Position numbers and translations under genes: made by a program. From an uncultured cyanobacterium (GTDB taxonomy: Bacteria; Cyanobacteriota; Cyanobacteriia; PCC-6307; Cyanobiaceae), in the NCBI GenBank assembly GCA_903858015.1, contig CAIOGZ010000045.1, positions 7,178 to 71,177 of the forward strand: a DNA stretch of 64,000 nt. The letters are read 5' to 3'. Positions 1-46,182 of this stretch are shown piece after piece. The notes below the pieces were generated by a model. It had not been told where the DNA came from. It did no database searches and was given only the letters and a program-made list of their open reading frames with translations. The first letter of the stretch is position 1, and every line of letters starts with the position of its first letter.

Positions 1-712
1 GCGGTGGGCTGACTGGCGGGGGCGGCAGCGAAGGGCAGAGCTGGGCAATGATCGAGGGCGATGGGCGCCCTGCCAAGAGGCGCAAGGTCATGGCGCTGGG
101 GGTGCGACTCGCTGCTGAAAAGCGCAAATCAAAACTAACGCGGCTGCTATCGGTTTCGTTGGCGACACTGCCATGGGACAGCAAGCCACCGTCAAAAAAG
201 AGGGCCTGACCAAGGCGAACTTGAATCGGTTGATAATGTTCGCTTCCGTAGTTGTCCTCCACCCAGAGGGTGTTGCCAGCGAAGCAATTGGTGGCTGGCA
301 GCCAGATGTTGATCTGCTCCAATCGACCGGTGACGTTGGCGTCACGGTGCCAGCGACTCACCGAGCCTGAGCCGGCGAGATGGACCCGCATTTTGGGGCG
401 GGCCGCATAGGATATGCGACCACCAAAATAACGGACCACCAATTCATGCACAAAGCGTGTGTAGATTGTATAGAATTCCGAGCTCAATGGCAGGCGTTGC
501 ATCGCTTGGCGCAGGCGCAGATTATCCGGGTAGCCAGGCGGAGTGCCTGGCTTGCAAAGGTTACTTTGATGCAGGTTTTCCAGGTCATCAACCCGGAAAA
601 CCTGATCGCGAAGATAGCGAGCAAAGGGATAGAGTTCTGGGTCGTAGTTGAGCAACCAGGCCGATTGCATTCCAGGCACCTGGCTCCAGCTCTTGAGCGA
701 GTTGTCAGTCAT
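1..712 (-). CDS. Fe(II)/2-oxoglutarate dioxygenase (StrG/PhyH-like), 3' end runs off the window; absent from ORF track
   Basis: Hand translation from the ATG at 712 gives an open frame to the window edge (MTDNSLKSWSQ...). It has HxD in SRWHRDA and a distal His plus RxS in LSHGSVANETDSSRVSFDLRF. The ATG overlaps the TGA of the upstream methyltransferase (ATGA, 709-712). Confidence 0.75.
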   Translation of the reverse strand, partial: MTDNSLKSWSQVPGMQSAWLLNYDPELYPFARYLRDQVFRVDDLENLHQSNLCKPGTPPGYPDNLRLRQAMQRLPLSSEFYTIYTRFVHELVVRYFGGRISYAARPKMRVHLAGSGSVSRWHRDANVTGRLEQINIWLPATNCFAGNTLWVEDNYGSEHYQPIQVRLGQALFFDGGLLSHGSVANETDSSRVSFDLRFSAASRTPSAMTLRLLAGRPSPSIIAQLCPSLPPPPVSPP

Positions 713-3051
713 GGCAATAGCTTGACCAGGCTACGATTCACGATCTGGGCATAGAGAGAGGCACGCTCCCACTTATGCCAGATCATCCCGCCCATCGCCC
801 AGGGCGATTGGGCCTGGGCGCCATACAACTGCTGCCAGGCAACAGGTGTAAGACCAAACTCCGGTTGAGGTCGCAGCACCCCCTCGCTCACCGGCACCAG
901 GCCCACGAGCGCTTGACCATCCACCTGGCCATGGAGCATGGGGTGCAAGGTGATCGGATCAAGCAATAGCGATACTTGCCCCTGCCGCGCCCAGGCCGGT
1001 CCATCGCTCCAACTAATCTGATCGTGCTGCCACTGGCCTGGGGTAGCGATGCCATTCAGGGCCAGACTGTCCGCAGTGAGCCGCAGGCTGCGCAGCACAG
1101 GATGCCCCTTGAGCACAAATTCGCCGCGAAGGGATTGGGCCACTTGAGCATCCTTCTGCCAACAGCCATCGAGTGCAAAACGCTGGTTGCCGCAGAGCAG
1201 GTGGCGGCCCTGCAAGGCAAGAGCACCGGCTAGCTGGCTGCCATTGAGGCTCAGGTTCAAGCAACGGCCCTGGTCGCCCTGGTCGCAGACCTCCAGTACC
1301 AAACGGCCGGCGTCGGAGCGATAGCTGCCCACCGCCATCGCCGGATGCTGGCGGCCAGGAAGCACCTCATGGAACACGAGGCGGTGGTCGGCCGGTACGG
1401 CCTCGCCAGCGGGCCAGATACTGCCCAGCAAGCGCCGCTGGCCGCGGGTATCAACATCAACCCGTAGAAATCCGTGACTGGGTTGCGCCGACGTTGCCTG
1501 CCAACGCAAAACACCGCGCTTAAAGCGGAAATTGCTAATCAGCTTGCCCTGCAGCAACAACCGGGCCCGCGGGCCCTCGCCCAGCAACACCAACAACTGG
1601 TCGGGTTGGTTGGCCTGGTAGACGCCATTCCAGGGGAACAACAGATCGCGCTGGAGTAGGTCGATGTCGGTGCGCAACCTGCCCCATTCGCAATCGCCAT
1701 GGCCCGAGGCGGCCGCGAAAGCCTCCAAATCGGTGGTATCGCAGCGGCCCTGGCTAAGCAGTTGGGCGAGGCGGCGCAGCAAAGGGCGCTGCCGGAACAG
1801 GGCCTCCAACAACTGCCGATTGGCGGCGCAAACCACCTGGCTACCCTTGGCCGCCACCTGGAGAGCGCCGGCATCACGGCTGGCCAACAGGGTGCGCTCA
1901 CGGGCCGTGAGATCGGCAAATTCGGCGCTGGCCAGGGCGGCGTGGGGATTATCCCGGTAGCGATCGGCCAGTTCCTGATCGAGGCGCAGGGCGATCAAAA
2001 ACCGATTGGCGGCGGTTTCGCCTTGCCAGTGGTAACCAGCGGGCACCTGGAACTGGTGAAAGGCAGGAAAAGCCTTACGCTCCCGCGGGCCGTAGGTGCC
2101 GATCTGGCGCAGCGGCGTGGCCACCGGTTTGGGTTGCTGGCCAGGCTGCAACATGCCCAGCTGCTGCATCATCGTGGCGCAGGGAGCGGCGGTGTCTTTC
2201 GGGGCTAGATAAAAGGTGGAGATGCCCGTCACCTTGGCTTGGGTGTCGGGATCGTGCAGGGCACTGAGGGGATAGTGCTCGATCACGGGCGCGATCGTGG
2301 GGAAGCGGGAAGCGATGTAGTTGGTAACCTGGTAGTCGGGGCCATAGTGCTGCTGTAGATAGGAAACAAAAATGGAGAAATTATCATTGATATAGCCCTT
2401 GCGGCGATAGCCCATCTCACCGATCAAGCCCACCTGCCAGAGCACCACATGCAGCTGGGTCGAGGGCAGCCGTTTGCGGATCAGCATGTCGGTAGCCTCA
2501 TGCATTTGCATGCCTGGATGGGCGGGATCCACGCCGAGATCGGCGCACAGACAATCCAAGGCCGACACACTGGGCCGCATCACGGCATGGTGGCCCTCGC
2601 GCCGGGCGATCTGAATGGCACGGTGGGTGGAAAGAACAAAAATACCGGGATGGCCGTAGTAAATCGCCACTACCTTCTTGCCCTGACGAAGCGGGAATAA
2701 CATCGCCTCGGTCATCTGCATGTAGGTGGTGTAACGCACCTTGCTGTCGTCATAGAGCACATAAAGATCGAGGGCGTCCGGCCGCCGTTGCTTGATCCAG
2801 GTAACGGTGGCGGGATCGGCCACGCAGAAGAACACGGCGTCGGCGCCAAGAATCAGCTCTTCATCGCCGAGGGTGAAGCCGAGGATGCCGATGCCCGAGC
2901 CGATGATCGTGAGGCTGCCGGGCTGCTGGGGAGGGGTGGCGGCAGGTGCTTCCTGAATGGCATCGGCCTGGGCGGCGATCTGGGCAGCCAGCTGCTGCCA
3001 GGCCCGGGCATGGTGCTCCTGGCTGGGTAAACGATTGGGGGTGATGGTCAT
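709..3051 (-). CDS. Borosin-family SAM-dependent peptide alpha-N-methyltransferase with BBD/LigA-like helical bundle and long C-terminal extension
   Basis: GSLTIIGSGI, VADPAT, LYDDSKVRYTTY (Tyr/Arg/Tyr catalytic set as in OphMA), YYGHPG, SALDCLCADLGVDP, EAT, WQVG and STFYLAP all follow the borosin methyltransferase pattern. A BBD-like segment follows (ANRFLIALRLDQELADRYRDNP...LTARERTLL). Likely start is the ATG at 3051. Confidence 0.85.
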   Translation of the reverse strand: MTITPNRLPSQEHHARAWQQLAAQIAAQADAIQEAPAATPPQQPGSLTIIGSGIGILGFTLGDEELILGADAVFFCVADPATVTWIKQRRPDALDLYVLYDDSKVRYTTYMQMTEAMLFPLRQGKKVVAIYYGHPGIFVLSTHRAIQIARREGHHAVMRPSVSALDCLCADLGVDPAHPGMQMHEATDMLIRKRLPSTQLHVVLWQVGLIGEMGYRRKGYINDNFSIFVSYLQQHYGPDYQVTNYIASRFPTIAPVIEHYPLSALHDPDTQAKVTGISTFYLAPKDTAAPCATMMQQLGMLQPGQQPKPVATPLRQIGTYGPRERKAFPAFHQFQVPAGYHWQGETAANRFLIALRLDQELADRYRDNPHAALASAEFADLTARERTLLASRDAGALQVAAKGSQVVCAANRQLLEALFRQRPLLRRLAQLLSQGRCDTTDLEAFAAASGHGDCEWGRLRTDIDLLQRDLLFPWNGVYQANQPDQLLVLLGEGPRARLLLQGKLISNFRFKRGVLRWQATSAQPSHGFLRVDVDTRGQRRLLGSIWPAGEAVPADHRLVFHEVLPGRQHPAMAVGSYRSDAGRLVLEVCDQGDQGRCLNLSLNGSQLAGALALQGRHLLCGNQRFALDGCWQKDAQVAQSLRGEFVLKGHPVLRSLRLTADSLALNGIATPGQWQHDQISWSDGPAWARQGQVSLLLDPITLHPMLHGQVDGQALVGLVPVSEGVLRPQPEFGLTPVAWQQLYGAQAQSPWAMGGMIWHKWERASLYAQIVNRSLVKLLP

Positions 3052-3223
3052 GGTGTTGTGAAACGGTGGGGAAGTTTTAAAAGGCAGGATGAGCAAAAGA
3101 ATGCAGCAAAAGGTTCGCCGCAGCCATAACGATCAAATGGCTGCGAGTCTTCAAATAAGCGAATGAATGCCACGCCACGCCTCAATAGCCAACAACGGTT
3201 GCTAGCCGGAAGCGAAACGGAAA

Positions 3224-5569
3224 CTAAGCGGCGCTACTGCCACTCAGGGTCATAAGGCTCCACTGGGCACTGGCGCAGTTGATCGCTGAACCCCAGCCGG
3301 TGGCCTGCAGCTGGCTCCAGCCGCTGCCGTTGTAATACTCCACCGCACCACTCCCGAGCCCTACCAGCACCTGGGGCTGGCCACTGGCGAGCCAGTTCGC
3401 CTCCATGCAGGTGACGGCAGACCCCCAGCCGATGCCCTGCAGCTGGCTCCAGCCGCTGCCGTTGTAATACTCCACCGCACCACTCCCGAGCCCCACCAGC
3501 ACCTGGGGCTGGCCACTGGCGAGCCAGTTCACCTGCATGCAGGTGACAGCAGACCCCCAGCCGGTGGCTTGCAGCTGGCTCCAGCCGCTGCCGTCGTAGT
3601 ATTCAACAGCTGAATCACCTAGGCCCACAACGAGTTGGAGCAGCGCATAGGGAGAGGTGATGGCCGAGAGATAGTTCAGTGATGTCTGGCACCCCACCAA
3701 GACCGGCGGGGAAACGTTGTTGTAGGTGTAGTTTGCCAAAAGATTATAGGCTTCGTATTGCTCACTGCTGCTGGCAAAGGCACTCATTTGGTTCACGAGC
3801 GCTGATTGCGCCTGCGGCGTCCATTGCCAACTATTGGCGGCATTTTGGGCTGTGCTATTTGGAGTAGAGAGAATGGAGCTAAGCACCATTTGCTGGCTGG
3901 TGATCGAAGGCTGCGCTTGCTGAACCCAATCGGCAAAGGTGCTCCAGCACTGCTGCGGGGTGTTGTTGGGATTGAGCATGTAATTCACCAGCAGCCCCAA
4001 GCCTGTGGATTGCTGTGGTGCCATCGAATTCATATCGTCGACCGCAGCTGTTTTCCAGACGCCAAGCAATTTCTGGGCCGAAATCATGCAAAACACAATT
4101 GCCAAATTGTCCACAAGGGCTGGGAAACCCTTGTCCATGATCCAGCCGCCAAGCTGATTGAGCAGGGTGTTGACCCCGCCCTTGGGCACCTCAACGTCCG
4201 TGTCGGTATCCGTATCGATATCGGTGTCGGTATCTGTATCGGTATCCGTGACATTGTCGGTATCGGTGACAACGTCTACGTCGCTATCAATATCAACGTC
4301 AATATCAACATCTACATCAATGATGGCAAATACATCTACGTCAATATCAACATCTACATCAATATCGACATCCGTATCCACATCGGTATCAACAACGGTG
4401 TCAGTGTCTTCCACGATATCTGTGTCGATGTCCGTGTCAACATCAACATCCACATCAACATCGACATTGATCGGATCGATGTCTTCGCCCAGCTCCGCGA
4501 TCGGATCGGCGGTGGCAGCTTGGCTGGAAAGATTTTCATTGATCGAGGCTACCAGCTTGCCGAGGTTGCTGTAGAGGAAAGCCATGCCATTGGCTACACC
4601 CTCTAGTACAAATGCCGCCATGTTTAGCACCATCAGCAACTGCACGGTGCGAAACGACACGAAGGCCATGTCGTAGGCCGCCACCCACCAGGGGATGGTG
4701 GGATTGGCATAGGGCTGGGCGATCAGGCTGGTGCCATTCAACGTGCCGCTCAGACAGAGCACGATCTGATCAGGACTGCCCTCCCAGGACAAACTGCGCG
4801 GGATACCAGCCAGCCATAATCCTTGGGTACTGCTGCCCCCGCTTGAACTCAACACCCCACCGCTGACGCTTAGGGGTGGCGTGAATGCGGATGCGCTGGA
4901 GGTTTTGGCAGGTGCATAGCTGGCGGCGCCATTGGCAATCGTAAGGGTGCCAACGCTGACGGTGGGCAGCACCAGATTGCTGGTGGAGGTGGTATCTGGC
5001 TCAAAGCAGAAGTAGGTGCCACTCCAGGGGAAGAGGGTGTTGTTGGCCCAGTAGGCCAGGGCTGCCATCTGCGGTTCCGTGCCGCCAGCCATGCCGTTGG
5101 CAGTACAAAAGGCGGCAACGTTGGTTTCCAGCTCAGCCGGGCTGGTGGAGGTATAGTAAATTTCGCTAAATTGCAGGGCCAGTGGTGAATAGGGCTGGGC
5201 CATGGTCTGCAGGTAAAAGCTCCAGCAGGTCTGGGCTATGGCTAGATCTGCCTGGGTGACTGTGGTGGCCGCTTTCTTGCTGAGGGGGGGCACCCAGACC
5301 AGCACAGGAAATTCGTTGTCTTGTTGCGCCAGTACGAGCCGGCTGCTGGAAGTTGATGGTGTAAAAGTGCCACTGCCATTGGCGGGAATGACGGCAATCT
5401 GGGTGTAGGTCGGCGCATAGTCAGCCGATTCCGTGCTGGGCGGTGAGCTGGGGGGGTTGGCACTGAAGGTGTAGTACACAATCAGCGGGGTGGCCAGCTG
5501 GTTGGTTACCGTGAGAAGGTTACTACTGCTCGATGAACTGGAACTGGTCGAACTTCCTGAAGCTGTCAT
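3224..5569 (-). CDS. Large protein with internal Asp-periodic (D-V/I/T)n tract, flanking hydrophobic helices and 3 C-terminal Trp-rich repeats; candidate borosin substrate
   Basis: ORF 3224..5608, likely start ATG 5569. About 95 aa of DVDVDTDID-type tract sit between two apolar helices. No signal peptide. Lies directly upstream of the methyltransferase on the same strand. Confidence 0.7.
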   Translation of the reverse strand: MTASGSSTSSSSSSSSNLLTVTNQLATPLIVYYTFSANPPSSPPSTESADYAPTYTQIAVIPANGSGTFTPSTSSSRLVLAQQDNEFPVLVWVPPLSKKAATTVTQADLAIAQTCWSFYLQTMAQPYSPLALQFSEIYYTSTSPAELETNVAAFCTANGMAGGTEPQMAALAYWANNTLFPWSGTYFCFEPDTTSTSNLVLPTVSVGTLTIANGAASYAPAKTSSASAFTPPLSVSGGVLSSSGGSSTQGLWLAGIPRSLSWEGSPDQIVLCLSGTLNGTSLIAQPYANPTIPWWVAAYDMAFVSFRTVQLLMVLNMAAFVLEGVANGMAFLYSNLGKLVASINENLSSQAATADPIAELGEDIDPINVDVDVDVDVDTDIDTDIVEDTDTVVDTDVDTDVDIDVDVDIDVDVFAIIDVDVDIDVDIDSDVDVVTDTDNVTDTDTDTDTDIDTDTDTDVEVPKGGVNTLLNQLGGWIMDKGFPALVDNLAIVFCMISAQKLLGVWKTAAVDDMNSMAPQQSTGLGLLVNYMLNPNNTPQQCWSTFADWVQQAQPSITSQQMVLSSILSTPNSTAQNAANSWQWTPQAQSALVNQMSAFASSSEQYEAYNLLANYTYNNVSPPVLVGCQTSLNYLSAITSPYALLQLVVGLGDSAVEYYDGSGWSQLQATGWGSAVTCMQVNWLASGQPQVLVGLGSGAVEYYNGSGWSQLQGIGWGSAVTCMEANWLASGQPQVLVGLGSGAVEYYNGSGWSQLQATGWGSAINCASAQWSLMTLSGSSAA
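3260..3640 (-). repeat. Three tandem 44-aa repeats (VGLGxxAVEYYxGSGWSQLQxxGWGSA), beta-propeller-blade-like
   Basis: Near-identical 132-bp tandem units are visible at DNA level. Confidence 0.85.
4190..4485 (-). repeat. Coding low-complexity (Asp-X)n tract, X = V/I/T
   Basis: DIDPINVDVDVDVDVDTDIDTDIVEDTDTVVDTDVDTDVDIDVDVDIDVDVF...DTDTDVEV, with mixed synonymous codons. Confidence 0.9.
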
Positions 5570-5646
5570 CACAAGGGGGCTGCAATGGTATTGAGGGGAA
5601 AGCCCCACTCCCTTAGAGGTGGGGCTGCAGATTGACCTTTAGCGGC

Positions 5647-8607
5647 TTATTCGAGATCAGCTAAATCACCAAGGTCACCATCCCCATCTCCATCCCCATC
5701 TCCATCCCCATCTCCATCACCATCACCATCACCATCACCATCACCATCTTCATCTTCCTTTTCCTGCTCATCCGATTCGTCAGCCTCTTCTTCTGACACC
5801 GTATCTTGTTGTTTAATAACATTGGCTGATGCTGCATCGCCTAAAGAGACATTCTCGTCTGCGATTGCTGTTTGATTGTCAGCAATACTAGTCTGAATAT
5901 TTTCCAGAGTTTCGCTAGCTTCACTTGATTCAGGATCAACCTCTTCTAGTTGATCCCTATCGGATTCTATTGTGGAGTTTTCAGCTTCGGTTGCCGGGTC
6001 GTTTTCTAATTCTTGCTGACTATGCACTTCACCGGCTTGTTGTGAGAGCTCTGCCTCCTCAATTGCCTCGTCATTTGCGTTAATGACAGTATCTTCACTG
6101 ATTTCACCTCCATCAACCGCCTCATCCTCTTCGTTTTCGGCGTTCTTGACCGACGGCTCGTCACTGGCTTGTGCCTCGCTCAGGCTATCGCCTGTCTTTA
6201 CCTCTTCATCAATGCCGGCGTCTTCCGCTTTCTCCTGAGCATCGTCCCTGAGCTCAGCTTCCTTGTCAGCGATCTCCTCTGAAGATGGATCCTCCCCACT
6301 CTCGCATTTTTCTTTGATCCAATCAAAGGTATCTCTCATGCAATCTATTCCAAATTTGAGCACCATGAGCAGCTGAAAAGCTTTAAATGCGTTAGAATTC
6401 ATAGCCCTATCAAAGGCTTTTCCTTCCTTGGCTGAAAATGTCCTGCTCAAATCTATTGGCGAGCCTATGACATTGGTACCGTTGATCAACCCAACTAACG
6501 CTTGAATGGGTATGCCCGTATCGTCTGAATTACCAGTCATTTGGGCCATGTCCACAAAGGTGCATTGCAGGCAGATGGCGGTGAATCCATCGCTATTGGC
6601 GTTAACCAACTGTTCATCCACGAAGTTGAGGCTAACGGACTTACTGCCTGTTGGATTCCAGTTGATTGAGTACCCCGCATTGGCATCGGAAACTGCAGCC
6701 AGCGTGGGTCCTGATTGGGTGAATACCACTGTGCCCAAGGATTTATATTGCTCATTAACTTTCACACTTGTGCTGCCAGTGGTACTGCTGCTATCACTGG
6801 TATCTGGAGTGACAGTGTAAAAGTTGTATGTATAAGTGGGCTGAAAATTTGCCCAGGCGTAGGCGTAGGCCGAGAGGTAGCTGCAGACCGCGCTATAAAT
6901 CTGGAAATTTACATTCTGGTAATTGCTTGTCTGTGCAAAGAACAGATCGACATTTGTAGCTTCAGCTGTTCCAGCACTACAATCTGCGTTCAACGCAGCC
7001 GTAAACTGCTGGGCCTGAGCGGATGAAGGATAAGCCATTATGTTCTGCTGAAATACATAGGCATTGGCAGCAGAACTTGAGTTGCATGGTGCTAGCGGCA
7101 ATACCGGTATGGCCGGAAATGTAAACATTCCCTTATCTTCAGCAACGGTAGCAACCGGAAAGTAATTATTGGATTGGGAAAGAAGAAGGGTGTAGCTTTG
7201 ATTAACTTGAGTGTCGTTTTCAGGTTCAAGATAGGGCAATAAATCAAGGGTCCCAGTTTCGCCTAGCGGTAGAACATTCGACATTGTATTAATCTCATTT
7301 TGGCTGGTAGTGCCCTCAGAGATGAAGCTGAGTAGAATCAGATTGCTCTGGAGATAACAGACTGTAGTTGCATTGGTGGTGTTATAGCCGCTTATGACCA
7401 CGATGCCTCCGTCCCATCCTGTTTGGGCTGGCGTATTTGGGTTGGTGGGCAGAATCAGATTGTTGTTGACGGAGCAGGTGTTTTGTGGCGTGGTGCTGCC
7501 ATTCAAGGGCGACACGGCCCACTGGGCACTGCCGCATGCAATCGCCGAGCCCCAACCCGCGCCCTGTAGTTGACTCCAGCTCGAGCCGTCAAAAGACTGA
7601 ACGGAACTATCGGCCAGGCCAACAATGATCTGGGGGTTCTCAAGACCGAGCCAACTCACCTGCAGGTAGCCTGCGGAGCTGCCCCAGCCGCTGCCTTGCA
7701 ACTGGCTCCAGCTGCTGCCGTTGTAATACTGCACCGAGCCATCACTCAGAGCCACCACCACCTGGGGAGCGCCACTAGCCGGCCAGTTCACCTCCATGCC
7801 AGTCACAGAGGAGCCCCAGCCCGTGCCTTGCAGCTGGCTCCAGCCATTGCCGTTGTAATACTCCACCGCGCCGCTGTTCAGACCCACCACCACCTGCGGA
7901 TCGGCTGATGTCCACTGCACCGCCAGCTGGCCGGCATTGGAACCCCAGCCCGTGGCCTGCAATTGGTTCCAGGAGCTGCCGTTGTAGTACTGCACCGATC
8001 CGTTGCCCAAACCCACGACGACCTCAGGCGTGCCGGAACCGTTCCAATTCACCGCCAGCGAACCTACGGAGTTCTTCCAGCCTGTGCCTTGCAACTGGCT
8101 CCAGCTGCTGCCGTTGTAGTACTGCACGGAGCTGTTGCCCAGCCCCACCACCACCTGGGGATTGCCACTGGCCGGCCAATTTACCTCCATGCAATTGACA
8201 GAGTTGTCCCAGCCCGTGCCCTGCAGCTGGCTCCAGCCACTGCCGTTGTAATACTCCACCGCACCACTGCTGAGCCCTACCACCACCAACGGATTGGCGG
8301 ATGTCCACTGCACCGCCAGCTGGCTGGCACTGGAATCCCAGCCCGTGCCCTGCAGCTGGCCCCAGGAGCTACCGTTGTAATACTGCACGGAACTGTTCCC
8401 GAGCCCGACGACGATCTGCGGCGTGCCGTACTCACTGAAAGTCACCGCCATCGACTTCACAGAGCTGGACCAACTCGTGTCTTGTAATTGACTCCAACCG
8501 CTGCCGTTGTAGTACTCCACGGCAGCATCGCCGAGTCCCACGACGATCTGAAGCTGCGGGGAAGTTGGACTGGTGGTGCTGGTGACTGATGCTGAAGATT
8601 GAGTCAT
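5647..8607 (-). CDS. Large protein: 8 N-terminal Trp-rich propeller-like repeats, central domain paralogous to the 3224 protein, long acidic tail ending in (DG)12
   Basis: 986-aa ORF. FQQNIMAYPSSAQAQQF aligns with FYLQTMAQPYSPLALQF, and AFKAFQLLMVL aligns with SFRTVQLLMVL of the neighbour. No signal peptide. Confidence 0.75.
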   Translation of the reverse strand: MTQSSASVTSTTSPTSPQLQIVVGLGDAAVEYYNGSGWSQLQDTSWSSSVKSMAVTFSEYGTPQIVVGLGNSSVQYYNGSSWGQLQGTGWDSSASQLAVQWTSANPLVVVGLSSGAVEYYNGSGWSQLQGTGWDNSVNCMEVNWPASGNPQVVVGLGNSSVQYYNGSSWSQLQGTGWKNSVGSLAVNWNGSGTPEVVVGLGNGSVQYYNGSSWNQLQATGWGSNAGQLAVQWTSADPQVVVGLNSGAVEYYNGNGWSQLQGTGWGSSVTGMEVNWPASGAPQVVVALSDGSVQYYNGSSWSQLQGSGWGSSAGYLQVSWLGLENPQIIVGLADSSVQSFDGSSWSQLQGAGWGSAIACGSAQWAVSPLNGSTTPQNTCSVNNNLILPTNPNTPAQTGWDGGIVVISGYNTTNATTVCYLQSNLILLSFISEGTTSQNEINTMSNVLPLGETGTLDLLPYLEPENDTQVNQSYTLLLSQSNNYFPVATVAEDKGMFTFPAIPVLPLAPCNSSSAANAYVFQQNIMAYPSSAQAQQFTAALNADCSAGTAEATNVDLFFAQTSNYQNVNFQIYSAVCSYLSAYAYAWANFQPTYTYNFYTVTPDTSDSSSTTGSTSVKVNEQYKSLGTVVFTQSGPTLAAVSDANAGYSINWNPTGSKSVSLNFVDEQLVNANSDGFTAICLQCTFVDMAQMTGNSDDTGIPIQALVGLINGTNVIGSPIDLSRTFSAKEGKAFDRAMNSNAFKAFQLLMVLKFGIDCMRDTFDWIKEKCESGEDPSSEEIADKEAELRDDAQEKAEDAGIDEEVKTGDSLSEAQASDEPSVKNAENEEDEAVDGGEISEDTVINANDEAIEEAELSQQAGEVHSQQELENDPATEAENSTIESDRDQLEEVDPESSEASETLENIQTSIADNQTAIADENVSLGDAASANVIKQQDTVSEEEADESDEQEKEDEDGDGDGDGDGDGDGDGDGDGDGDGDLGDLADLE
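5674..5748 (-). repeat. (Asp-Gly)12-Asp coding repeat
   Basis: GAT-GGN hexamer repeats; 25 codons counted directly. Confidence 0.9.
7519..8559 (-). repeat. Eight tandem 43-44 aa repeats (PQVVVGLxxxxVxYYNGSxWSQLQGTGW), probable 8-bladed beta-propeller
   Basis: Eight units counted in the translation; same consensus as the 3260-3640 repeats. Confidence 0.85.
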
Positions 8608-8753
8608 GACTGCAAAGAAAAAATGGTGAGGAAAAGCGATCTGGATGAGGCCCCATGCAATGCAGGGAGCCAGATGTGCCTGCAGTCAGGGGGGACGACA
8701 GAAAGAATGGAGTTGATGCAAGAGCTTGATTGCTCTTGTGTGGCTGATTTGAA

Positions 8754-10733
8754 TCATCGCTGCGCCACTAGATACCAGCCGCCACTTCCTTGAGGCCGCC
8801 AGCGCGGTTCCCAGTTGGCATAGGAATAGTGCTGGCGGGCACCATTGTGGTTTTGGGGATAGCCGCCATTCACCAAATCACAGCTGCCGTAGGGATCATT
8901 CATGATCACGCCGCTGGCGTCGTAGCCGATCACCACGGTCCAGTGGCCCCCGCCGCTCGGCGCCGATGGCGGGCCGTTGATCAGCCAACCCACCGCCACC
9001 GGGCGGCCCGCATCGATCTCACTTTTGATGGTCTGTAAGGTGCCATCGGTACGGAACTCCGCCTTCAGGCCCAGGTGCCGCAGCGCCGCAAGCTGGGCCT
9101 CAGAGGTGGTGGAGTCGCCGTATTGTTGGCGCAGAGCGTTGTAATCATCTTCGTTGGGTTCCTTGCCCCAGTAGGCGGCAAGCATGGCCGAACTGGCTGA
9201 GAAGCAATCGCGCCATCCCTGGCCATCGTCCATGGCCAGTTGGTCGAACCAGGGCACGTTGAGCGGATTGGGATGGGGGGCAGCAACTGCAGTGGCTGCT
9301 GTGGCAGGCCGATCGACTGCCCTAGGCCCGCCGCCGGTACCGAGCTGGCCTGGAGGGGTTCGGCTGGGTTGGCCGGCGCTAGCGGGTTGGGCCGCTGCGC
9401 TAGCCAAGCTGGCCATCCCCTGCTGCCACAGATCGGCCTCCGCCTGACGGCGCCGTAGGAGCCCCGCCTGCACCGAACTGCCCGGATCGCAATACAGCAG
9501 GAGGGCTTCGGGTACCTCAGCCCAATCCTTTTCCCTGAGACGGCGGCTGATCGTATCGAAGCCGGCACCGCCATAGAAATCTTCACCCAGATTCCAGGCA
9601 AAGGAGATCAGGCAGCAGCGCTGATCTTCCGCCATGCCGCTCCAGTAGGGAACGCGGCTGGCTAGATGGCGGGCGCAGGCATTGACACCAGCGAGCAGTT
9701 GGGCATCGGCCTCGGCGCGGCTAAGGGTGTCACCGGGCTGCACCGGACGCCCATCAAGACTGGTGAAGCCGTAGCCGATCGTCCAGGGTTCATCGCCGCT
9801 GGCCGGATCCGGATAGGCGTGATCCACAAATCCTTCGAACTCGGCAATCAACTGCAAGGCGGGTTCATAGGCAGGCGCGGCATCGCGTTGGCCAACGGCA
9901 GGGTGGGCGGCAAGGGAGGCGGTAGGGGAGGTAGTAGGGGAAGCTGCAGTGGGCTCCGCAGCCAGTAGGGGCAGGCTCGCCGCCGGGCCTGCCAGCCGAT
10001 GGGGTGGGGTGATTGCGCCGTTCGGAGGCGCGGATCGGGCCAGGATTGGGCGCAACACTGGCCCAGGGCTGGACTCTGGAACCAGGGGCGCTGGCCGGGG
10101 CTGCAGCGCGATCGGATCCACAGCAACGGCAGCCGCTGCAGGCGACGGGCGCGATGGTTGCAGAAGGCCGGAAAACTTGTTGGCTACGTAGGGGGCAAAC
10201 AGGGTGAGACCCGAATAAAGAAAAGTGCTAACAGCCACACTGGATGCGGGCATCTGACAGGTGAGTCCAAAGGTGTAGAGCGAAAAAACACCAAAGCCCA
10301 GATAGATCAAAAGAATCGCCACCATGCCCGCCAGGGCAATCAGTCGGCTGCTGCTGGCCTCCATTAGGATCACCGACGTGGGAGGGCCGTGCGGCGCGAG
10401 GGCCTTGATGCGAGCCTGGCTATCCCCCTGGGATTGCGCCCAGTGCTCGTCTAAAGGAATCGAGAGATGGGTGGGCTCGGAGATGGCATTGGCAAGCGAC
10501 CAGCCACTGCGCTGCAGCCGCCAATAAATCACGAAAAGCGTGACAACAACAGCGGTGAAAATGCCGGTGCTGATCGCCATCACCAGCTCGGGCCCCATGC
10601 TTCGGCAGAGGCCAGCGGCACCACCTAGCTGCTCCTGGGCCGCCGCAGGAAGCGAAAAGCCAAGCAACAACAAACAGACCATCAGCTTGGATCTGGATGG
10701 CATGATCAGCCGAACAAGTTTCAGATTCTTCAT
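8754..10733 (-). CDS. Membrane-anchored fusion: N-terminal multi-TM region, Pro-rich linker, GH24 (phage-type) lysozyme, C39-like peptidase
   Basis: Signal-like and 3 TM-like segments at the N-terminus. LIAEFEGFVDHAYPDPASGDEPWTIGYG fits GH24 E..D..T. LNVPWFDQ...DCFSAS, GHWTVVIGYD and NDPYG fit Peptidase_C39_2-like Cys/His/Asp. Confidence 0.8.
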   Translation of the reverse strand: MKNLKLVRLIMPSRSKLMVCLLLLGFSLPAAAQEQLGGAAGLCRSMGPELVMAISTGIFTAVVVTLFVIYWRLQRSGWSLANAISEPTHLSIPLDEHWAQSQGDSQARIKALAPHGPPTSVILMEASSSRLIALAGMVAILLIYLGFGVFSLYTFGLTCQMPASSVAVSTFLYSGLTLFAPYVANKFSGLLQPSRPSPAAAAVAVDPIALQPRPAPLVPESSPGPVLRPILARSAPPNGAITPPHRLAGPAASLPLLAAEPTAASPTTSPTASLAAHPAVGQRDAAPAYEPALQLIAEFEGFVDHAYPDPASGDEPWTIGYGFTSLDGRPVQPGDTLSRAEADAQLLAGVNACARHLASRVPYWSGMAEDQRCCLISFAWNLGEDFYGGAGFDTISRRLREKDWAEVPEALLLYCDPGSSVQAGLLRRRQAEADLWQQGMASLASAAAQPASAGQPSRTPPGQLGTGGGPRAVDRPATAATAVAAPHPNPLNVPWFDQLAMDDGQGWRDCFSASSAMLAAYWGKEPNEDDYNALRQQYGDSTTSEAQLAALRHLGLKAEFRTDGTLQTIKSEIDAGRPVAVGWLINGPPSAPSGGGHWTVVIGYDASGVIMNDPYGSCDLVNGGYPQNHNGARQHYSYANWEPRWRPQGSGGWYLVAQR

Positions 10734-10754
10734 TTCAATAACTGCGATAGTTTC

Positions 10755-11666
10755 TCAATGGGTGGAATCAGTTGTCGACGCTTTGTGGATCAAGACGGCG
10801 GCCTCTTTGACAGCGAATTGATCATCCATGACAAAGACTGGAGTGTCATTGAGGGCTAATTGCTGATCAACAAAATCGAGGAAAGCGCCCAGCTGATAGC
10901 GATCACGCAAGGACAGCCGCTCGGATCCACTCCCATACTCCTGATTGGCAATCGCTGTAGCAAAGCTGCGGGTTAGTGCAATCGTCTGCTTGTAAAGACG
11001 AGCGCTTATCTGTTGATTGCTTTTCAGATTGAAGGTGTTGATCGTCACCACCGCCATACCCAAGGCGAAGCCCGAGGCCACCAGCACGCTGAAGGGCCAA
11101 CGGATCTCCGTCTGCAAGCCATGCAGACTGAGCAATGCCAGCATCGTTGCCGACAGCATTGCCGCCGCATTGGCCATGCCAACCAAGGCCTGATAGTTTG
11201 CAGAAAAAATCTGCATACTCTGGCAATGGTATTGATAAAGCTCCTTCAATTCAATGGCCTGTCGCACTAGGCGTTGCCTCTGCAGAGGAGACGCGGTTGG
11301 CAATGCCAAACCCAACTGCTGAAGATTGATGCTGGTGCCCAGCGGCAGCGGGTCGCCTGGTTGTTGGTGCTGCTGGGGATCGGGTTGCAGCAACTTGATT
11401 GGGACCCTGTTGCAATAACCTAAATTGCGTTGGCGGCTCTGGGCCGCCTGGCGGTATACCACAACGAGGGCGAAGGCCAACGCCAGGATGGCGCCCGCCA
11501 GCAGCAGATGGCCAGCCGTACTGAGCCGTAGTCTCCGGCCAGCTTGCTGCATCCCTTGGCCCACCAACCTGGCATGGTTGGGTAGCTCGCCTGCATCCAC
11601 GCTTGCCTCCATCAGCAACCGCCTGATCGCCATGCCTGGGCCTTGGCGCTCGATCGCCTGGGTCAT
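10755..11666 (-). CDS. Hypothetical membrane protein (3 predicted TM helices; C-terminal 2TM part SLATT-like)
   Basis: Hydrophobic segments LLLAGAILALAFALVVVY, NAAAMLSATMLALLSL and FSVLVASGFALGMAVVTI. First gene of the minus-strand run. Confidence 0.55.
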   Translation of the reverse strand: MTQAIERQGPGMAIRRLLMEASVDAGELPNHARLVGQGMQQAGRRLRLSTAGHLLLAGAILALAFALVVVYRQAAQSRQRNLGYCNRVPIKLLQPDPQQHQQPGDPLPLGTSINLQQLGLALPTASPLQRQRLVRQAIELKELYQYHCQSMQIFSANYQALVGMANAAAMLSATMLALLSLHGLQTEIRWPFSVLVASGFALGMAVVTINTFNLKSNQQISARLYKQTIALTRSFATAIANQEYGSGSERLSLRDRYQLGAFLDFVDQQLALNDTPVFVMDDQFAVKEAAVLIHKASTTDSTH

Positions 11667-12322
11667 GGGCTGCAGCCGTTACAGGAACTAGCCAGCAAGG
11701 GCAAAGCGATGCAATAACAGCTTGAGGCGCCGGCGGGGGTGAATGAACTGGAACTTGCTAGCAATGCCATGGGTGATGCACCTGCTGGAAGGTTCTGGAG
11801 CTGATTTTCTCTGTCTAAGGTGAATCAATGGACAGCATTCGAATGGGCTGGGTTGAGTCCGGCTCAAGCGATTGCCGTATCCATCGATCGAACAATGAAC
11901 CACCTCGCCCCAGCTGGCCAATCATTTCTGAAATCTTTCAAAGCCCTGCCCCATCCAGCTCGCCGCGGCCCTTCAGCTTCGGTACCAGCTCCAGCTCCAA
12001 CCCCAGCTCCAGCCTCGGCTGCAGCCCGAGCCCCGGCATCGCCTGCCCATCGACCGACAGGGCGAGGAAGAGAAGCATAGGAATAAGAGTATAAACTCAA
12101 CATTCGCAAGTAAAGTACAATTTCAACCCCAACATCGAAACCCTGCCCCAAAGGTCCAGTTTCGGCTTGACAGCATGGCCACAGTTTTGCCAAAATAGTT
12201 ACTGGTATGCTTAAAATAGCCTCACCCGCCTGCGCCCCCCCTAGCCATGCATGCATACTGATCGGCCAGCTTTTGCCATCAATGAGGATGTCCGATTCTT
12301 GTTTCGCTAGCCATGGCAGCTC

Positions 12323-43747: not shown

Positions 43748-43879
43748 ACTATGCCGCAACTGTATCGAGGATGTGAGTGTGGCCTCCCGATGTCTGACTG
43801 CAGGGACTGACATCAAACGACCCCATGCTGCTGCGGTCAAAAGACGTGGTAGGGAGTGATGGGGAAAAGGCGGACTGGA

Positions 43880-43970
43880 TCCGGCCTCGCATCTCTCCTC
43901 GGTGCCATACAGCTCAAGGAACTGCGTCAAAGACATTCCAGGTTGGAACTGGGATCCGGTTCATAGGCAT
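43880..43970 (-). mobile_element. IS1595-family transposase 5' scrap
   Basis: MPMNRI (frameshift) QFQPGMSLTQFLELYGTEERCEA. Confidence 0.6.
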
Positions 43971-44061: not shown

Positions 44062-46182
44062 CTATTCATCGGCCAGGAGGTGGCCATAAGCCTTCCTAAA
44101 GATGTCTTGATCATCGACGTGCGAGTCATTCAAGACAGAACAGATAGAGCTTGCCACGCTCAAAATATGCTCATCCGAAAGAAATCTTTGGCGATAAGTC
44201 TCATCAAGATGGCAAAATTCTATTTTCCTTTGATCTCGAGCACACCTCGCATAAAGATGGCGCATAAAACTGATGACGGTTACAGCTGCAGAACCAATAT
44301 AGCCACTCCTCTGTAAGCGATTTGAATGGACCAAGAATAGCCCATCGGAGATAAAGCGTTCAGGAATTTGCGTGTCGATGGCAAGCATATACAAAACATC
44401 TAAATCGTATAAAAGTATATTAATCAGATACTTGCCCGTAGCGCTTAATTCGTATACGATCTCATCGCCTTCCAGCTTGATGGAATCAATCCACCCAAAG
44501 GCCCGAGAGTCCTTAAGAGTCTGCTCTACACAGCTTCTATCGTACCCAAATGCATAAACCAAGGAATCACAAAGGTGCCCATGGCTCATTGTCCCGTTCC
44601 AAAGTATCTCTAAGATTCTAATCCTTAAGAATAAAAGAGAGGTTTTACTTTGGGATTGAGGAAATTGCCGCAAGTCAATCCAAAAAGGGTTGATATAGGC
44701 TAAGCCTTTATCACGATTTTTTTCATAGTATGTATCATTAGTCTGCAACAAAAAATCTCCATTTAGGAACAGGTTTCTTTTCATCATTTGTTGGGCCTGT
44801 CTAGAGAGATCAACGGATGGATCCTTTCCAAGCTGGTGCCAACGATATCTAACTTGATCAGCCAGAGTAGCAGAGTTCACAATTATGTTTCGGATATTAC
44901 TGTGCATGATATCTAAGGAGGGCAGCGCTGAAACGGCTGATTTAATGGTGTCGGTGGGAAAGAAAGAGGAATTGCTTGCAAGCAAATGACTTGACATCTT
45001 CTCGTTAAGCCAATCAGTCCGTTTTCGGGCTATTTCATTTACGTTAGGGACTTGGTGAATAATCTTTTTTGGTTTTGAAACGCTATTGCATCCTGTAGTG
45101 CTATGATCTTGTTTCAAAATATCTATCCATGTTCGATTTCGCATGACGGTTAGCCTTAGCTCATTAGCCGGCGCTACGCGTAACACAAAATTTACAAGCT
45201 CAGGGAGCAAGCGATTATAAGGTGCAACGCCATATTCTGTATTCAGGTGAAGGTTATCGACGCCATCTAGGATAAACAAAATATGAATTCCAATCTCGTC
45301 TAAGTATTTGCGAGTCATCTTACTGCATTCCTTCCATCGAAAGAATTGTCTTCGCTTTGATACTTTATCAGGGAATAATGTTGAGAATATGTATTTTTCA
45401 TCAGACTCGAGCATTTCACGTATATGCGTGTCAATATACTCATAGACGCCTCTAAGGTTGTACTCGACGCGATCTTCAGCTCTGCTTTGCTTGTGCCGAA
45501 ATAGTATCCCCGCATCTTTAATTCTCGCCATGAGTCGCCTAGCTATCCCGTTATATCTATTATGATCGGCAAGTATTGCAAGAAGTTGGAAATCAAAATA
45601 ATCATTAATTGTTGGATATAAATCTGCTGGGACACCATGCTTTACTGATGCCCATGCATCGAAGAGGGTCTGTGCATTGCAGCGAAGATAGAATATGTTA
45701 TTATTTTCAAGATATTCATGATTTCTGCTGAGCCAATAGTTTTGCATAGAGGTTTTTCCACTTCCTTTTGGGCCTATATAAACAATATTACCATACTTCC
45801 ATTTTCCTCTTTCGTCGAGCTCCAGGTATTGATTTAGGTCGACATACGTGCCAGTAATCACAAAGTATGAACATAGCTCATCTGGCGGCAGATGTGGAGT
45901 ATACGGGGCGGAGTCGGATGTTGATTCATAGGAGCTTACTGCGTTCCAGAAGGTCTTCTCTTCTTTGGCCAAGAAGTCACGAGGACTATTGTATCCATCT
46001 GGCTTAAGCCTCCTCAATATATTTTCATCATGATAAGGATAAACCAAAGTATCATACGAATACCTGGATTCATCAAATGATTGCAAGGTTTCATGGAGCA
46101 AGCGAATATCTATGCAGATTTTGGAATTTGTAGAGGATTTTTCACGCTTCTCTGAATTCAGAGAGTTTTCTGTGGAAGTCAT
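44062..46182 (-). CDS. AT-rich P-loop NTPase (STAND-like) with C-terminal winged-helix-like region
   Basis: Walker A IGPKGSGKT, Walker B ILFILDGVDN, C-terminal LRIRILEIL...YELSATGKY. Confidence 0.7.
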   Translation of the reverse strand: MTSTENSLNSEKREKSSTNSKICIDIRLLHETLQSFDESRYSYDTLVYPYHDENILRRLKPDGYNSPRDFLAKEEKTFWNAVSSYESTSDSAPYTPHLPPDELCSYFVITGTYVDLNQYLELDERGKWKYGNIVYIGPKGSGKTSMQNYWLSRNHEYLENNNIFYLRCNAQTLFDAWASVKHGVPADLYPTINDYFDFQLLAILADHNRYNGIARRLMARIKDAGILFRHKQSRAEDRVEYNLRGVYEYIDTHIREMLESDEKYIFSTLFPDKVSKRRQFFRWKECSKMTRKYLDEIGIHILFILDGVDNLHLNTEYGVAPYNRLLPELVNFVLRVAPANELRLTVMRNRTWIDILKQDHSTTGCNSVSKPKKIIHQVPNVNEIARKRTDWLNEKMSSHLLASNSSFFPTDTIKSAVSALPSLDIMHSNIRNIIVNSATLADQVRYRWHQLGKDPSVDLSRQAQQMMKRNLFLNGDFLLQTNDTYYEKNRDKGLAYINPFWIDLRQFPQSQSKTSLLFLRIRILEILWNGTMSHGHLCDSLVYAFGYDRSCVEQTLKDSRAFGWIDSIKLEGDEIVYELSATGKYLINILLYDLDVLYMLAIDTQIPERFISDGLFLVHSNRLQRSGYIGSAAVTVISFMRHLYARCARDQRKIEFCHLDETYRQRFLSDEHILSVASSICSVLNDSHVDDQDIFRKAYGHLLADE

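Follow-up and report, generated by a model that had tools for sequence, protein, structure and literature searches.

The window considered here is a 64,000-nucleotide stretch of contig CAIOGZ010000045.1 from an uncultured cyanobacterium of the Cyanobiaceae (GenBank assembly GCA_903858015.1), at one end of which four minus-strand genes would form a single cassette. In the order of transcription, these encode a 986-residue partner protein (5647–8607), a precursor protein of 794 residues when read as the longest open reading frame (ORF; 3224–5608), a 795-residue alpha-N-methyltransferase of the borosin type (NMT; 709–3096), and a small protein resembling Fe(II)/2-oxoglutarate (2OG) oxygenases (2–712); coordinates below refer to the minus strand unless marked (+). 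In the middle of the precursor lies a long tract in which Asp alternates with Val, Ile or Thr, and this tract is the subject of our analysis. On the basis of homology, synteny, catalytic motifs and tract conservation, we assign the precursor and its NMT to the Type VIII split borosins, and it is highly likely that the tract serves as the core of a precursor homologous to PmoA.

The Asp-X tract and its protein

The tract spans 4187–4471 (residues 380–474 of the 794-residue ORF) and reads INVDVDVDVDVDTDIDTDIVEDTDTVVDTDVDTDVDIDVDVDIDVDVFAIIDVDVDIDVDIDSDVDVVTDTDNVTDTDTDTDTDIDTDTDTDVEVP. It is treated as a putative core for backbone N-methylation considering its sequence and statistics, its homologues, the published mass spectrometry of PmoA and AlphaFold2 modeling. 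A preliminary description of this DNA had placed it at 4190–4485, equivalent to residues 375–473; its existence is borne out, with slightly shifted limits. Over 96 residues it contains 39 Asp, 23 Val, 16 Thr and 10 Ile, and 72 of the 96 fall within D[VIT] runs of at least two units, whereas in 10,000 shuffled versions with unchanged composition this number averaged 14.6 and never exceeded 40. The same description had called the alternation strict. The alternation holds but the strictness does not, as the register is broken about five times (IVED, TVVD, VFAIID, DVVTD and DNVTD), and the majority of these breaks also occur in aligned homologues. The landmarks of the tract are a P-I-N-V-D start, a central hydrophobic break (VFAII), a second break (VVTDTDNVTD) and an end of the form DIDTD..V.VP.G. 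Synonymous codons are indeed mixed, as had been noted (Asp GAT 27 and GAC 14; four codons each for Val and Thr and two for Ile), and Tandem Repeats Finder detects only short, imperfect arrays in the DNA (period 6–42, 67–88% matches). The ORFs that cross the tract on the opposite strand, such as 4158–4574 (+) with its "STSVSVS..." translation, are mirror images of the repeat and are unsupported.

A search of 5.8 billion proteins recovered 59 full-length precursor homologues of ~600–650 residues, from Pseudomonas, Burkholderia, Massilia, Pseudoduganella, Vibrio, Hahella, Nannocystis, Methylumidiphilus and metagenomes. Compared across these orthologues, the tract is present at the same position in 59 of 59, neither absent nor random, with a typical length of 90–110 residues and a range of 58 to ~175. 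Nearly all share one anatomy, comprising a "P-I/V-N-V-D" start, a central "D-(V/F)-(F/I/L)-A-(V/I)-(V/I)-D" hydrophobic break, a further "VVTDTDNVTD"-like break, and then a "D-I-D-T-D-V-x-V-x-P-G" end; the central break is missing in a few (P0046, P0047 and the Vibrio-type sequences). An alignment of 30 sequences, with 33–54% identity to the window protein, reveals 7 fully invariant Asp columns within the tract and a further 17 with a conservation of 90% or higher; the X positions between them vary among Val, Ile and Thr. The window precursor is collinear with the 29 aligned homologues over their full ~600-residue length, through the N-terminal domain, helices, tract and C-terminal domain. Between the tract and that of a 93–97% identical relative in a cyanobacterial metagenome-assembled genome (MAG) from Lac Pavin, there are 4 synonymous and 0 nonsynonymous codon differences. 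The conserved Asp columns with V/I/T drift and the lack of nonsynonymous differences argue for selection at the protein level rather than slippage. The family is rare: among 1.84 billion cluster representatives, ~49 clusters match at E ≤ 1e-30, many of them fragments, and ~13–20 look full-length. A scan of genome contigs with the family alignment matched at least 600 stretches, mostly degenerate D-X patterns, of which 3 encode a relative among the matches listed. One candidate with 12 tract matches, P0085 (2931 residues), is an unrelated repetitive protein and was discarded as a compositional false positive.

These comparisons bear on an alternative in which repeat slippage generated an acidic, low-complexity spacer or cation-binding (Ca2+ or mineral) region that stays unmodified and beside which the NMT lies by coincidence. 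The local imperfect DNA repeats and the variable tract length would fit such an origin, as would a compositional likeness to the Ser-Asp stalks of staphylococcal adhesins. We nonetheless consider it very improbable, given that the anatomy and Asp register are conserved across phyla, that codon usage is mixed, that the tract is linked to an NMT in nine of nine loci and fused to it in Actinobacteria, and that the homologous PmoA tract is methylated experimentally. The Pfam and NCBIfam models of staphylococcal Ser-Asp repeat adhesins, which match the tract weakly, were rejected as compositional matches far under their cut-offs. The Clf/Sdr stalks share with the tract a long, enzymatically decorated X-Asp dipeptide repeat, but the likeness is one of composition, an analogy and not homology, with O-linked N-acetylglucosamine on Ser and a cell wall setting. 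The stalks are glycosylated by SdgA and SdgB, which protects them against proteolysis.

The remainder of the precursor is a substantial protein. Its true start is probably the ATG at 5569 (Met14), the position where the homologues begin. An N-terminal folded domain (residues 30–306; 4691–5521) is predicted by AlphaFold2 as a beta-sandwich with a helical insert, mostly at a predicted local distance difference test (pLDDT) score of 80–97; its invariant residues include T69, P101, P139, P142 and W187, and it has no known fold relative with a Foldseek E below 0.01. Apolar helices (residues 307–367; 4508–4690; hydropathy 1.7) follow directly upstream of the tract, modeled as 307–336, 341–347 and 349–367. 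Downstream, an apolar helix (residues 478–517) leads into an all-helical C-terminal domain (residues 518–651; the two together at 3656–4177), as indicated by AlphaFold2, hydropathy and the alignment, with G487, W518, G538, Y543, W555, T557, W596 and P635 invariant. The two flanking apolar helices that had been described from the sequence are thereby recovered, at 307–336 and 341–367 upstream and 478–499 downstream in the model, with Kyte–Doolittle peaks at 315–345 and 497–515. The PmoA-like body ends near residue 651 and is succeeded by lineage-specific repeats. Neither Pfam nor NCBIfam places the precursor in a real family, and a Foldseek search of the model against the PDB returned nothing below E 0.01, only generic beta-propeller matches to the C-terminal repeats and very weak cytolysin matches. 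Compared to its Lac Pavin relative (L004:7992-10355), the gene at 3224–5608 displays a mosaic divergence: codons 111–306 of the N-terminal domain differ at 79 of 196 positions (27 non-synonymous), and divergence is lower from the apolar helices on (14 of 66 helix codons; 21 of 422 codons from the tract onward). This pattern suggests a recombination breakpoint within the gene.

The AlphaFold2 model, built from the 30-sequence alignment, has a mean pLDDT of 67 and is confident in the N-terminal (residues 30–300) and C-terminal (residues 540–650) domains. Between them the tract is modeled as an unstructured loop and is thus presumably accessible, as would fit an exposed substrate loop; the model may be read as neither for nor against the earlier idea that the tract is a beta-strand. 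A further structural alternative is that the tract folds back on itself at the hydrophobic FAII tip, its two arms making up a long amphipathic beta-hairpin that oligomerizes into a membrane-inserting barrel in the manner of beta-pore-forming toxins. The alternating polar/apolar pattern, the hydrophobic center and the flanking apolar helices invite this comparison, and Foldseek finds a weak similarity to cholesterol-dependent cytolysins (E 0.15–0.6; template modeling score below 0.13). These matches are not significant, however, AlphaFold2 predicts no hairpin, and there is no signal peptide; no known stem resembles arms of ~45 residues that carry ~20 Asp apiece, and a barrel would be prevented from hydrogen bonding along one of its strand edges if every second amide were N-methylated. 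Since the cytolysin matches are so weak, we dropped this reading as extremely improbable.

The methyltransferase and the published PmoA/PmoM pair

The NMT encoded next to the precursor combines a TP_methylase domain, a putative OphMA-like clasp region and a ~360-residue C-terminal extension. It matches PF00590 (TP_methylase) with 37.9 bits against a cut-off of 27.8, aligns with the sequences of the OphMA/dbOphMA crystal structures (E 2.5e-71 over residues 55–433) and with SonM (E 4e-40), and is 43% identical over its full length (795 residues) to the 806-residue PmoM encoded directly after PmoA, of which we consider it the orthologue. The alignment extends through the clasp region of OphMA/dbOphMA to residue 419–433 of the window NMT, and a borosin-binding (clasp/BBD) region fused to the NMT is a published feature of types V–VIII. 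Tyr112, Arg121, Tyr125 and Tyr147 have a spacing (9/4/22) identical to that of SonM Tyr58, Arg67, Tyr71 and Tyr93, mutation of which impairs or abolishes catalysis. A YGHP motif occupies residues 147–150, and a DCLCAD motif at 181 takes the place of the DCLFAD used by published detection hidden Markov models, the Phe-to-Cys change being common to other Type VIII NMTs.

Precursor and NMT are separate, adjacent minus-strand genes with a 127-nucleotide gap. A terminator-like hairpin with a T-rich tail lies at the precursor stop codon (3224–3247), ahead of the NMT gene; it could attenuate read-through into the NMT, with the terminator scan itself at chance (12 found, 10.3 expected). Promoter and terminator scans around the cassette are at chance level, and an Rfam scan found no RNA element near it.

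Type VIII split borosins have been described as precursors of ~600 residues whose core lies in mid-protein, is built of D[V/I]D[V/I] repeats and receives its methyl groups on acidic residues, and the type was validated by co-expression of PmoA and PmoM from Pseudomonas mosselii CIP 105259 (Imani et al., bioRxiv 10.1101/2021.12.24.474128). In that work, liquid chromatography–tandem mass spectrometry identified the methylated PmoA peptides IAVVDVDVDVDIDVDID, ADPVNVDVDIDVDIDV... and TDTETDIDIDVDVDIDTDVN, with 5–8 N-methyl groups each. The methyl sites are every second residue, comprising the Asp register together with the Val and Asn that occupy this register at the hydrophobic center and the start, so that the alpha-N-methyl groups are mainly on Asp-register residues and not on the beta-branched ones (bioRxiv 10.1101/2021.12.24.474128). 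The peptides IAVVDVDVDVDIDVDID, ADPVNVDVDIDVDIDV and TDTETDIDIDVDVDIDTDVN are exact substrings of P0032, a homologue of the window precursor from P. mosselii, and we therefore equate P0032 with PmoA. The window precursor aligns end to end with it at ~41% identity.

The correspondence extends well beyond the tract. Both systems have a collinear N-terminal domain, apolar helices, a mid-protein D[V/I/T] tract with a hydrophobic center, a helix and a helical C-terminal domain; both have an adjacent NMT of ~800 residues (43% identical), a small oxygenase-like gene downstream and a member of the same partner family in the cluster. They differ in that the window precursor carries three extra 44-residue repeats at its C-terminus and its partner eight, in that the X positions of the window tract are richer in Thr, in that the window partner lies upstream of the precursor whereas that of P. 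mosselii lies downstream, and in that the host is an oxygenic cyanobacterium.

Other borosins share parts of this arrangement. In the Type VII pair AinA/AinM of Achromobacter insuavis, DVDV repeats are methylated on acidic residues by a large NMT and, judging from the published peptides, a hydrophobic stretch appears to be bracketed by two sets of DX units, but AinA has ~110 residues without the PmoA N- and C-terminal domains and AinM more than 1000. The fungal Type III fused protein AboMA and its bacterial fused relatives ("cluster 4", PMC11395268; P0060, P0062 and P0066) have an alternating acidic repeat core (DVDVT), and the actinobacterial fused relatives share the tract anatomy and oxygenase gene of the window; their core is, however, fused to the C-terminus of the NMT, and AboMA methylates Val and Thr rather than Asp. 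OphMA/dbOphMA (omphalotin) and SonM/SonA (Type IV) have in common with the window NMT its fold, catalytic residues and presumed iterative backbone N-methylation, but act on short hydrophobic cores with known small-peptide products; OphMA is moreover autocatalytic in trans within its dimer, and SonA has a small helical bundle for a leader instead of a 600-residue protein. PmoA, AinA and AboMA are thus closer precedents than PgiMA1 and RceA, which the preliminary description had named. Its central proposal, a borosin core in mid-protein methylated by the neighboring enzyme, is supported by the PmoA-collinear precursor and the adjacent PmoM orthologue, with methylation of the tract in this organism being what we infer from the homologue.

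Several observations weigh against the assignment of the tract as a Type VIII core. Methylation has been demonstrated for the P. mosselii homologue only, was obtained in E. coli and was incomplete, and for Type VIII as a whole a mature product is not known, none having been found by the authors (bioRxiv 10.1101/2021.12.24.474128). The window precursor is only ~41% identical to PmoA and has additional repeats. AlphaFold2 gives the tract (residues 372–472) a pLDDT below 50 and no secondary structure, and hence no support for a beta-strand. Finally, the small downstream gene is assigned as an oxygenase from partial, sub-threshold family matches and an invariant HxD...H...R pattern.

The oxygenase-like gene, the partner and the possible fate of the tract

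The small gene (2–712) encodes at least 237 residues, runs to the window edge and overlaps the NMT stop by 4 nucleotides. Its PhyH match falls just short of the cut-off (21.6 as against 22 bits; E 3e-4), and its match to TIGR04324 (2OG-Fe(II) oxygenase; E 1.5e-10) is partial and below cut-off; H122-x-D124, H180 and R191 are invariant in seven orthologues. A profile search of the PDB with this family gave nothing significant, the best match being the AndA dioxygenase at E 0.5. Across the seven split loci (the window, the Lac Pavin MAG, P. mosselii, Massilia, Vibrio splendidus, Nannocystis punicea and Hahella), the gene product has 213–262 residues with 37–84% mutual identity, and the order of precursor, NMT and oxygenase-like gene is the same in all seven; in Hahella, a 529-residue gene intervenes between the NMT and the oxygenase-like gene.

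The unit reappears in a different form in Actinobacteria, where, in three proteins of ~1200 residues, the chain of a Type VIII-like NMT continues into a hydrophobic helix and a C-terminal tract that has the anatomy seen in the window (NVDVDV..DFIAVVD..VVDNVTDN). These are probably the "new type of fused borosin" of PMC11395268. Their NMT part matches residues 22–716 of the window NMT, and the PmoA N- and C-terminal domains are absent. Both fused loci that were fetched have the oxygenase family immediately downstream (L014:10633-11274 and L015:10663-11319; E ~1e-71 to 1e-73), so that the family is found downstream of the NMT in nine of nine loci (seven split and two fused) and the NMT, Asp-X tract and putative oxygenase constitute an invariant unit. 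Given this invariable coupling, and given that the published co-expressions comprised NMT and precursor only, a second, oxygenase-dependent modification of the tract is a reasonable inference; no further modification was seen in that work (bioRxiv 10.1101/2021.12.24.474128). A description of the oxygenase-like gene or of the partner protein was not found in the accessible borosin papers, and a 2024 preprint mentions only "a previously unreported conserved region" for type VI–VIII clusters. In the fused proteins (L014:7001-10636 and L015:7001-10660), a transmembrane-like helix (e.g., GIAGIVLGTLAAGLLGTGYLLW) and an acidic linker come just before the tract, and the genes are flanked by a conserved PLD-like protein of ~934 residues and a 180-residue protein on one side and by the oxygenase on the other. 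An apolar helix ahead of an acidic region is common to the precursor, the partner and the fused forms.

The partner (5647–8607) is itself related to the precursor. A profile of the PmoA N-terminal domain matches its residues 474–756 with 28.1 bits, as compared to at most 6.5 in 500 shuffles; aligning the whole family against the 986-residue partner with hhalign recovers the shared 44-residue repeats only, so the paralogy required a profile restricted to the N-terminal domain. The partner comprises eight 44-residue repeats (7492–8556), the PmoA-N-like domain with an apolar helix (6340–7188), and an Asp/Glu-rich tail of ~225 residues (5650–6324) ending in a (DG)n run at 5674–5745, a perfect Asp-Gly repeat of ~13 units (Tandem Repeats Finder: period 6, 12.3 copies). 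Partners of ~560–600 residues are encoded in all seven split loci, and ~40 proteins of ~440–600 residues (mostly 520–575) in the 1.84-billion-protein library match the N-terminal profile only. The partners have the N-terminal domain and apolar helix, followed by a long D/E/Q-rich, coiled-looking tail in place of the DX tract. The same enzymes may also act on the D/E-rich tail, as a second substrate.

With these components in view, it is possible, though somewhat unlikely, that the chemistry is as proposed but that the tract is never excised, the end product being, in place of a released natural product of the RiPP kind, an intact, backbone-methylated and perhaps hydroxylated protein whose N- and C-terminal domains and partner belong to the final assembly. 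The ~500 residues outside the tract are conserved, with 21 invariant positions and pLDDT of 80–97, which goes far beyond the requirements of a leader; no protease or exporter recurs across the nine loci; a paralogous partner with N-terminal domain, apolar helix and acidic tail accompanies all seven split loci, sharing propeller-like repeats with the precursor in this genome; and, as noted, Imani et al. found no mature product. On the other hand, the fused actinobacterial forms lack the PmoA N- and C-terminal domains and the partner, so that the tract, whatever its role, must be able to do without them; a protease gene may lie elsewhere in the genome, as has been reported for other borosins; and the conserved tract boundaries (DP-INVD and V.VP.G) could themselves be cleavage sites.

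For the tract as a Type VIII core, a plausible course of events can be outlined. The SAM (S-adenosylmethionine)-dependent NMT of the OphMA/PmoM type, probably a dimer, would accept the acidic loop that the precursor presents between its two apolar helices and iteratively methylate the backbone amide nitrogen at every second residue, in the Asp register, continuing through the central hydrophobic break as in PmoA. Methylation at every second amide would remove the hydrogen-bond donors of one strand edge, leaving the other edge able to pair while sheet growth and proteolysis are blocked; by backbone stereochemistry, this is in line with the earlier suggestion that methylation prevents edge hydrogen bonding and aggregation and confers protease resistance. 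The result would be a polyanionic stretch with one methyl-capped hydrogen-bonding edge, protease-resistant and unable to extend into sheets or aggregates, to which the conserved oxygenase probably adds a second modification.

A more ambitious idea, which we put forward tentatively and hold to be unlikely as a whole, is that Type VIII "borosins" are not peptide natural products but a three-part protein-modification module of NMT, 2OG oxygenase and Asp-X tract. It would produce a permanently N-methylated and possibly hydroxylated (e.g., beta-hydroxy-Asp) polyanionic element beside an apolar helix, serving with its acidic-tailed partner as a protease-proof cation-binding or surface-active device; in the present genome, the matching propeller-like (lectin-like?) repeats could target the assembly.

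The system as such belongs to a RiPP class that is already published, though little studied, and its rediscovery here from raw sequence leaves the field unchanged. The window extends Type VIII to oxygenic cyanobacteria, with extra repeats. New with respect to the accessible papers are the coupling to an oxygenase-like gene, the conserved paralogous partner, and the fixed two-arm anatomy of the tract with its conserved boundaries. The oxygenase coupling suggests a missed second modification that co-expression of NMT and precursor could not show.

Repeats and genomic setting

The 44-residue repeats have the approximate consensus VVGLGxxAVEYYNGSGWSQLQGTGWGSxVxxMxVNWxASGxPQ and occur three times at the C-terminus of the precursor (3245–3640; period 132, 94% matches; beta strands at pLDDT 50–70) and eight times at the N-terminus of the partner, with 57–63% identity between the two proteins. 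They are predicted as beta-strand blades with a Foldseek similarity to generic propellers only, and have no Pfam, NCBIfam or PDB sequence match. In the Lac Pavin relative, they are found on the precursor only. The homologues in other phyla are without them, most ending before this point and a few carrying other C-terminal extensions.

The host is an oxygenic cyanobacterium with a 3.8 Mb genome that encodes photosystem II reaction-center genes. The NMT, which served as search probe for the cassette, was found in only 2 of 25 genomes of the genus, and the cassette region (window 1–12000) has a G+C content of 51–62%, as compared to ~68–73% in most neighboring blocks. From the lower G+C and patchy distribution, the cassette looks like a horizontally acquired island.

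Upstream of the cassette lie a 659-residue protein (8754–10733), with N-terminal hydrophobic segments, Pro/Ala-rich linkers, and phage-lysozyme and C39-like/papain-like peptidase domains, and, preceding it, a membrane-looking protein of 303 residues (10755–11666). Both are syntenic in the Lac Pavin MAG and absent from Type VIII clusters elsewhere; the 659-residue protein is more probably a cell-wall hydrolase than a borosin protease. A 388-residue gene downstream of the P. mosselii cluster was set aside as not belonging to the core: it has no counterpart in the Lac Pavin MAG, where the ORF beside the cassette is unrelated and looks dehydrogenase-like.

The window as a whole is a G+C patchwork (0.41–0.73), and is thus probably a variable region made of islands. 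Far from the cassette and unrelated to it, a match to group II intron domains D1–D4 (RF01999, 80.8 bits) lies at 43773–43889 (+) and adjoins a stretch of 41% G+C with a 706-residue ORF on the opposite strand (44062–46182).

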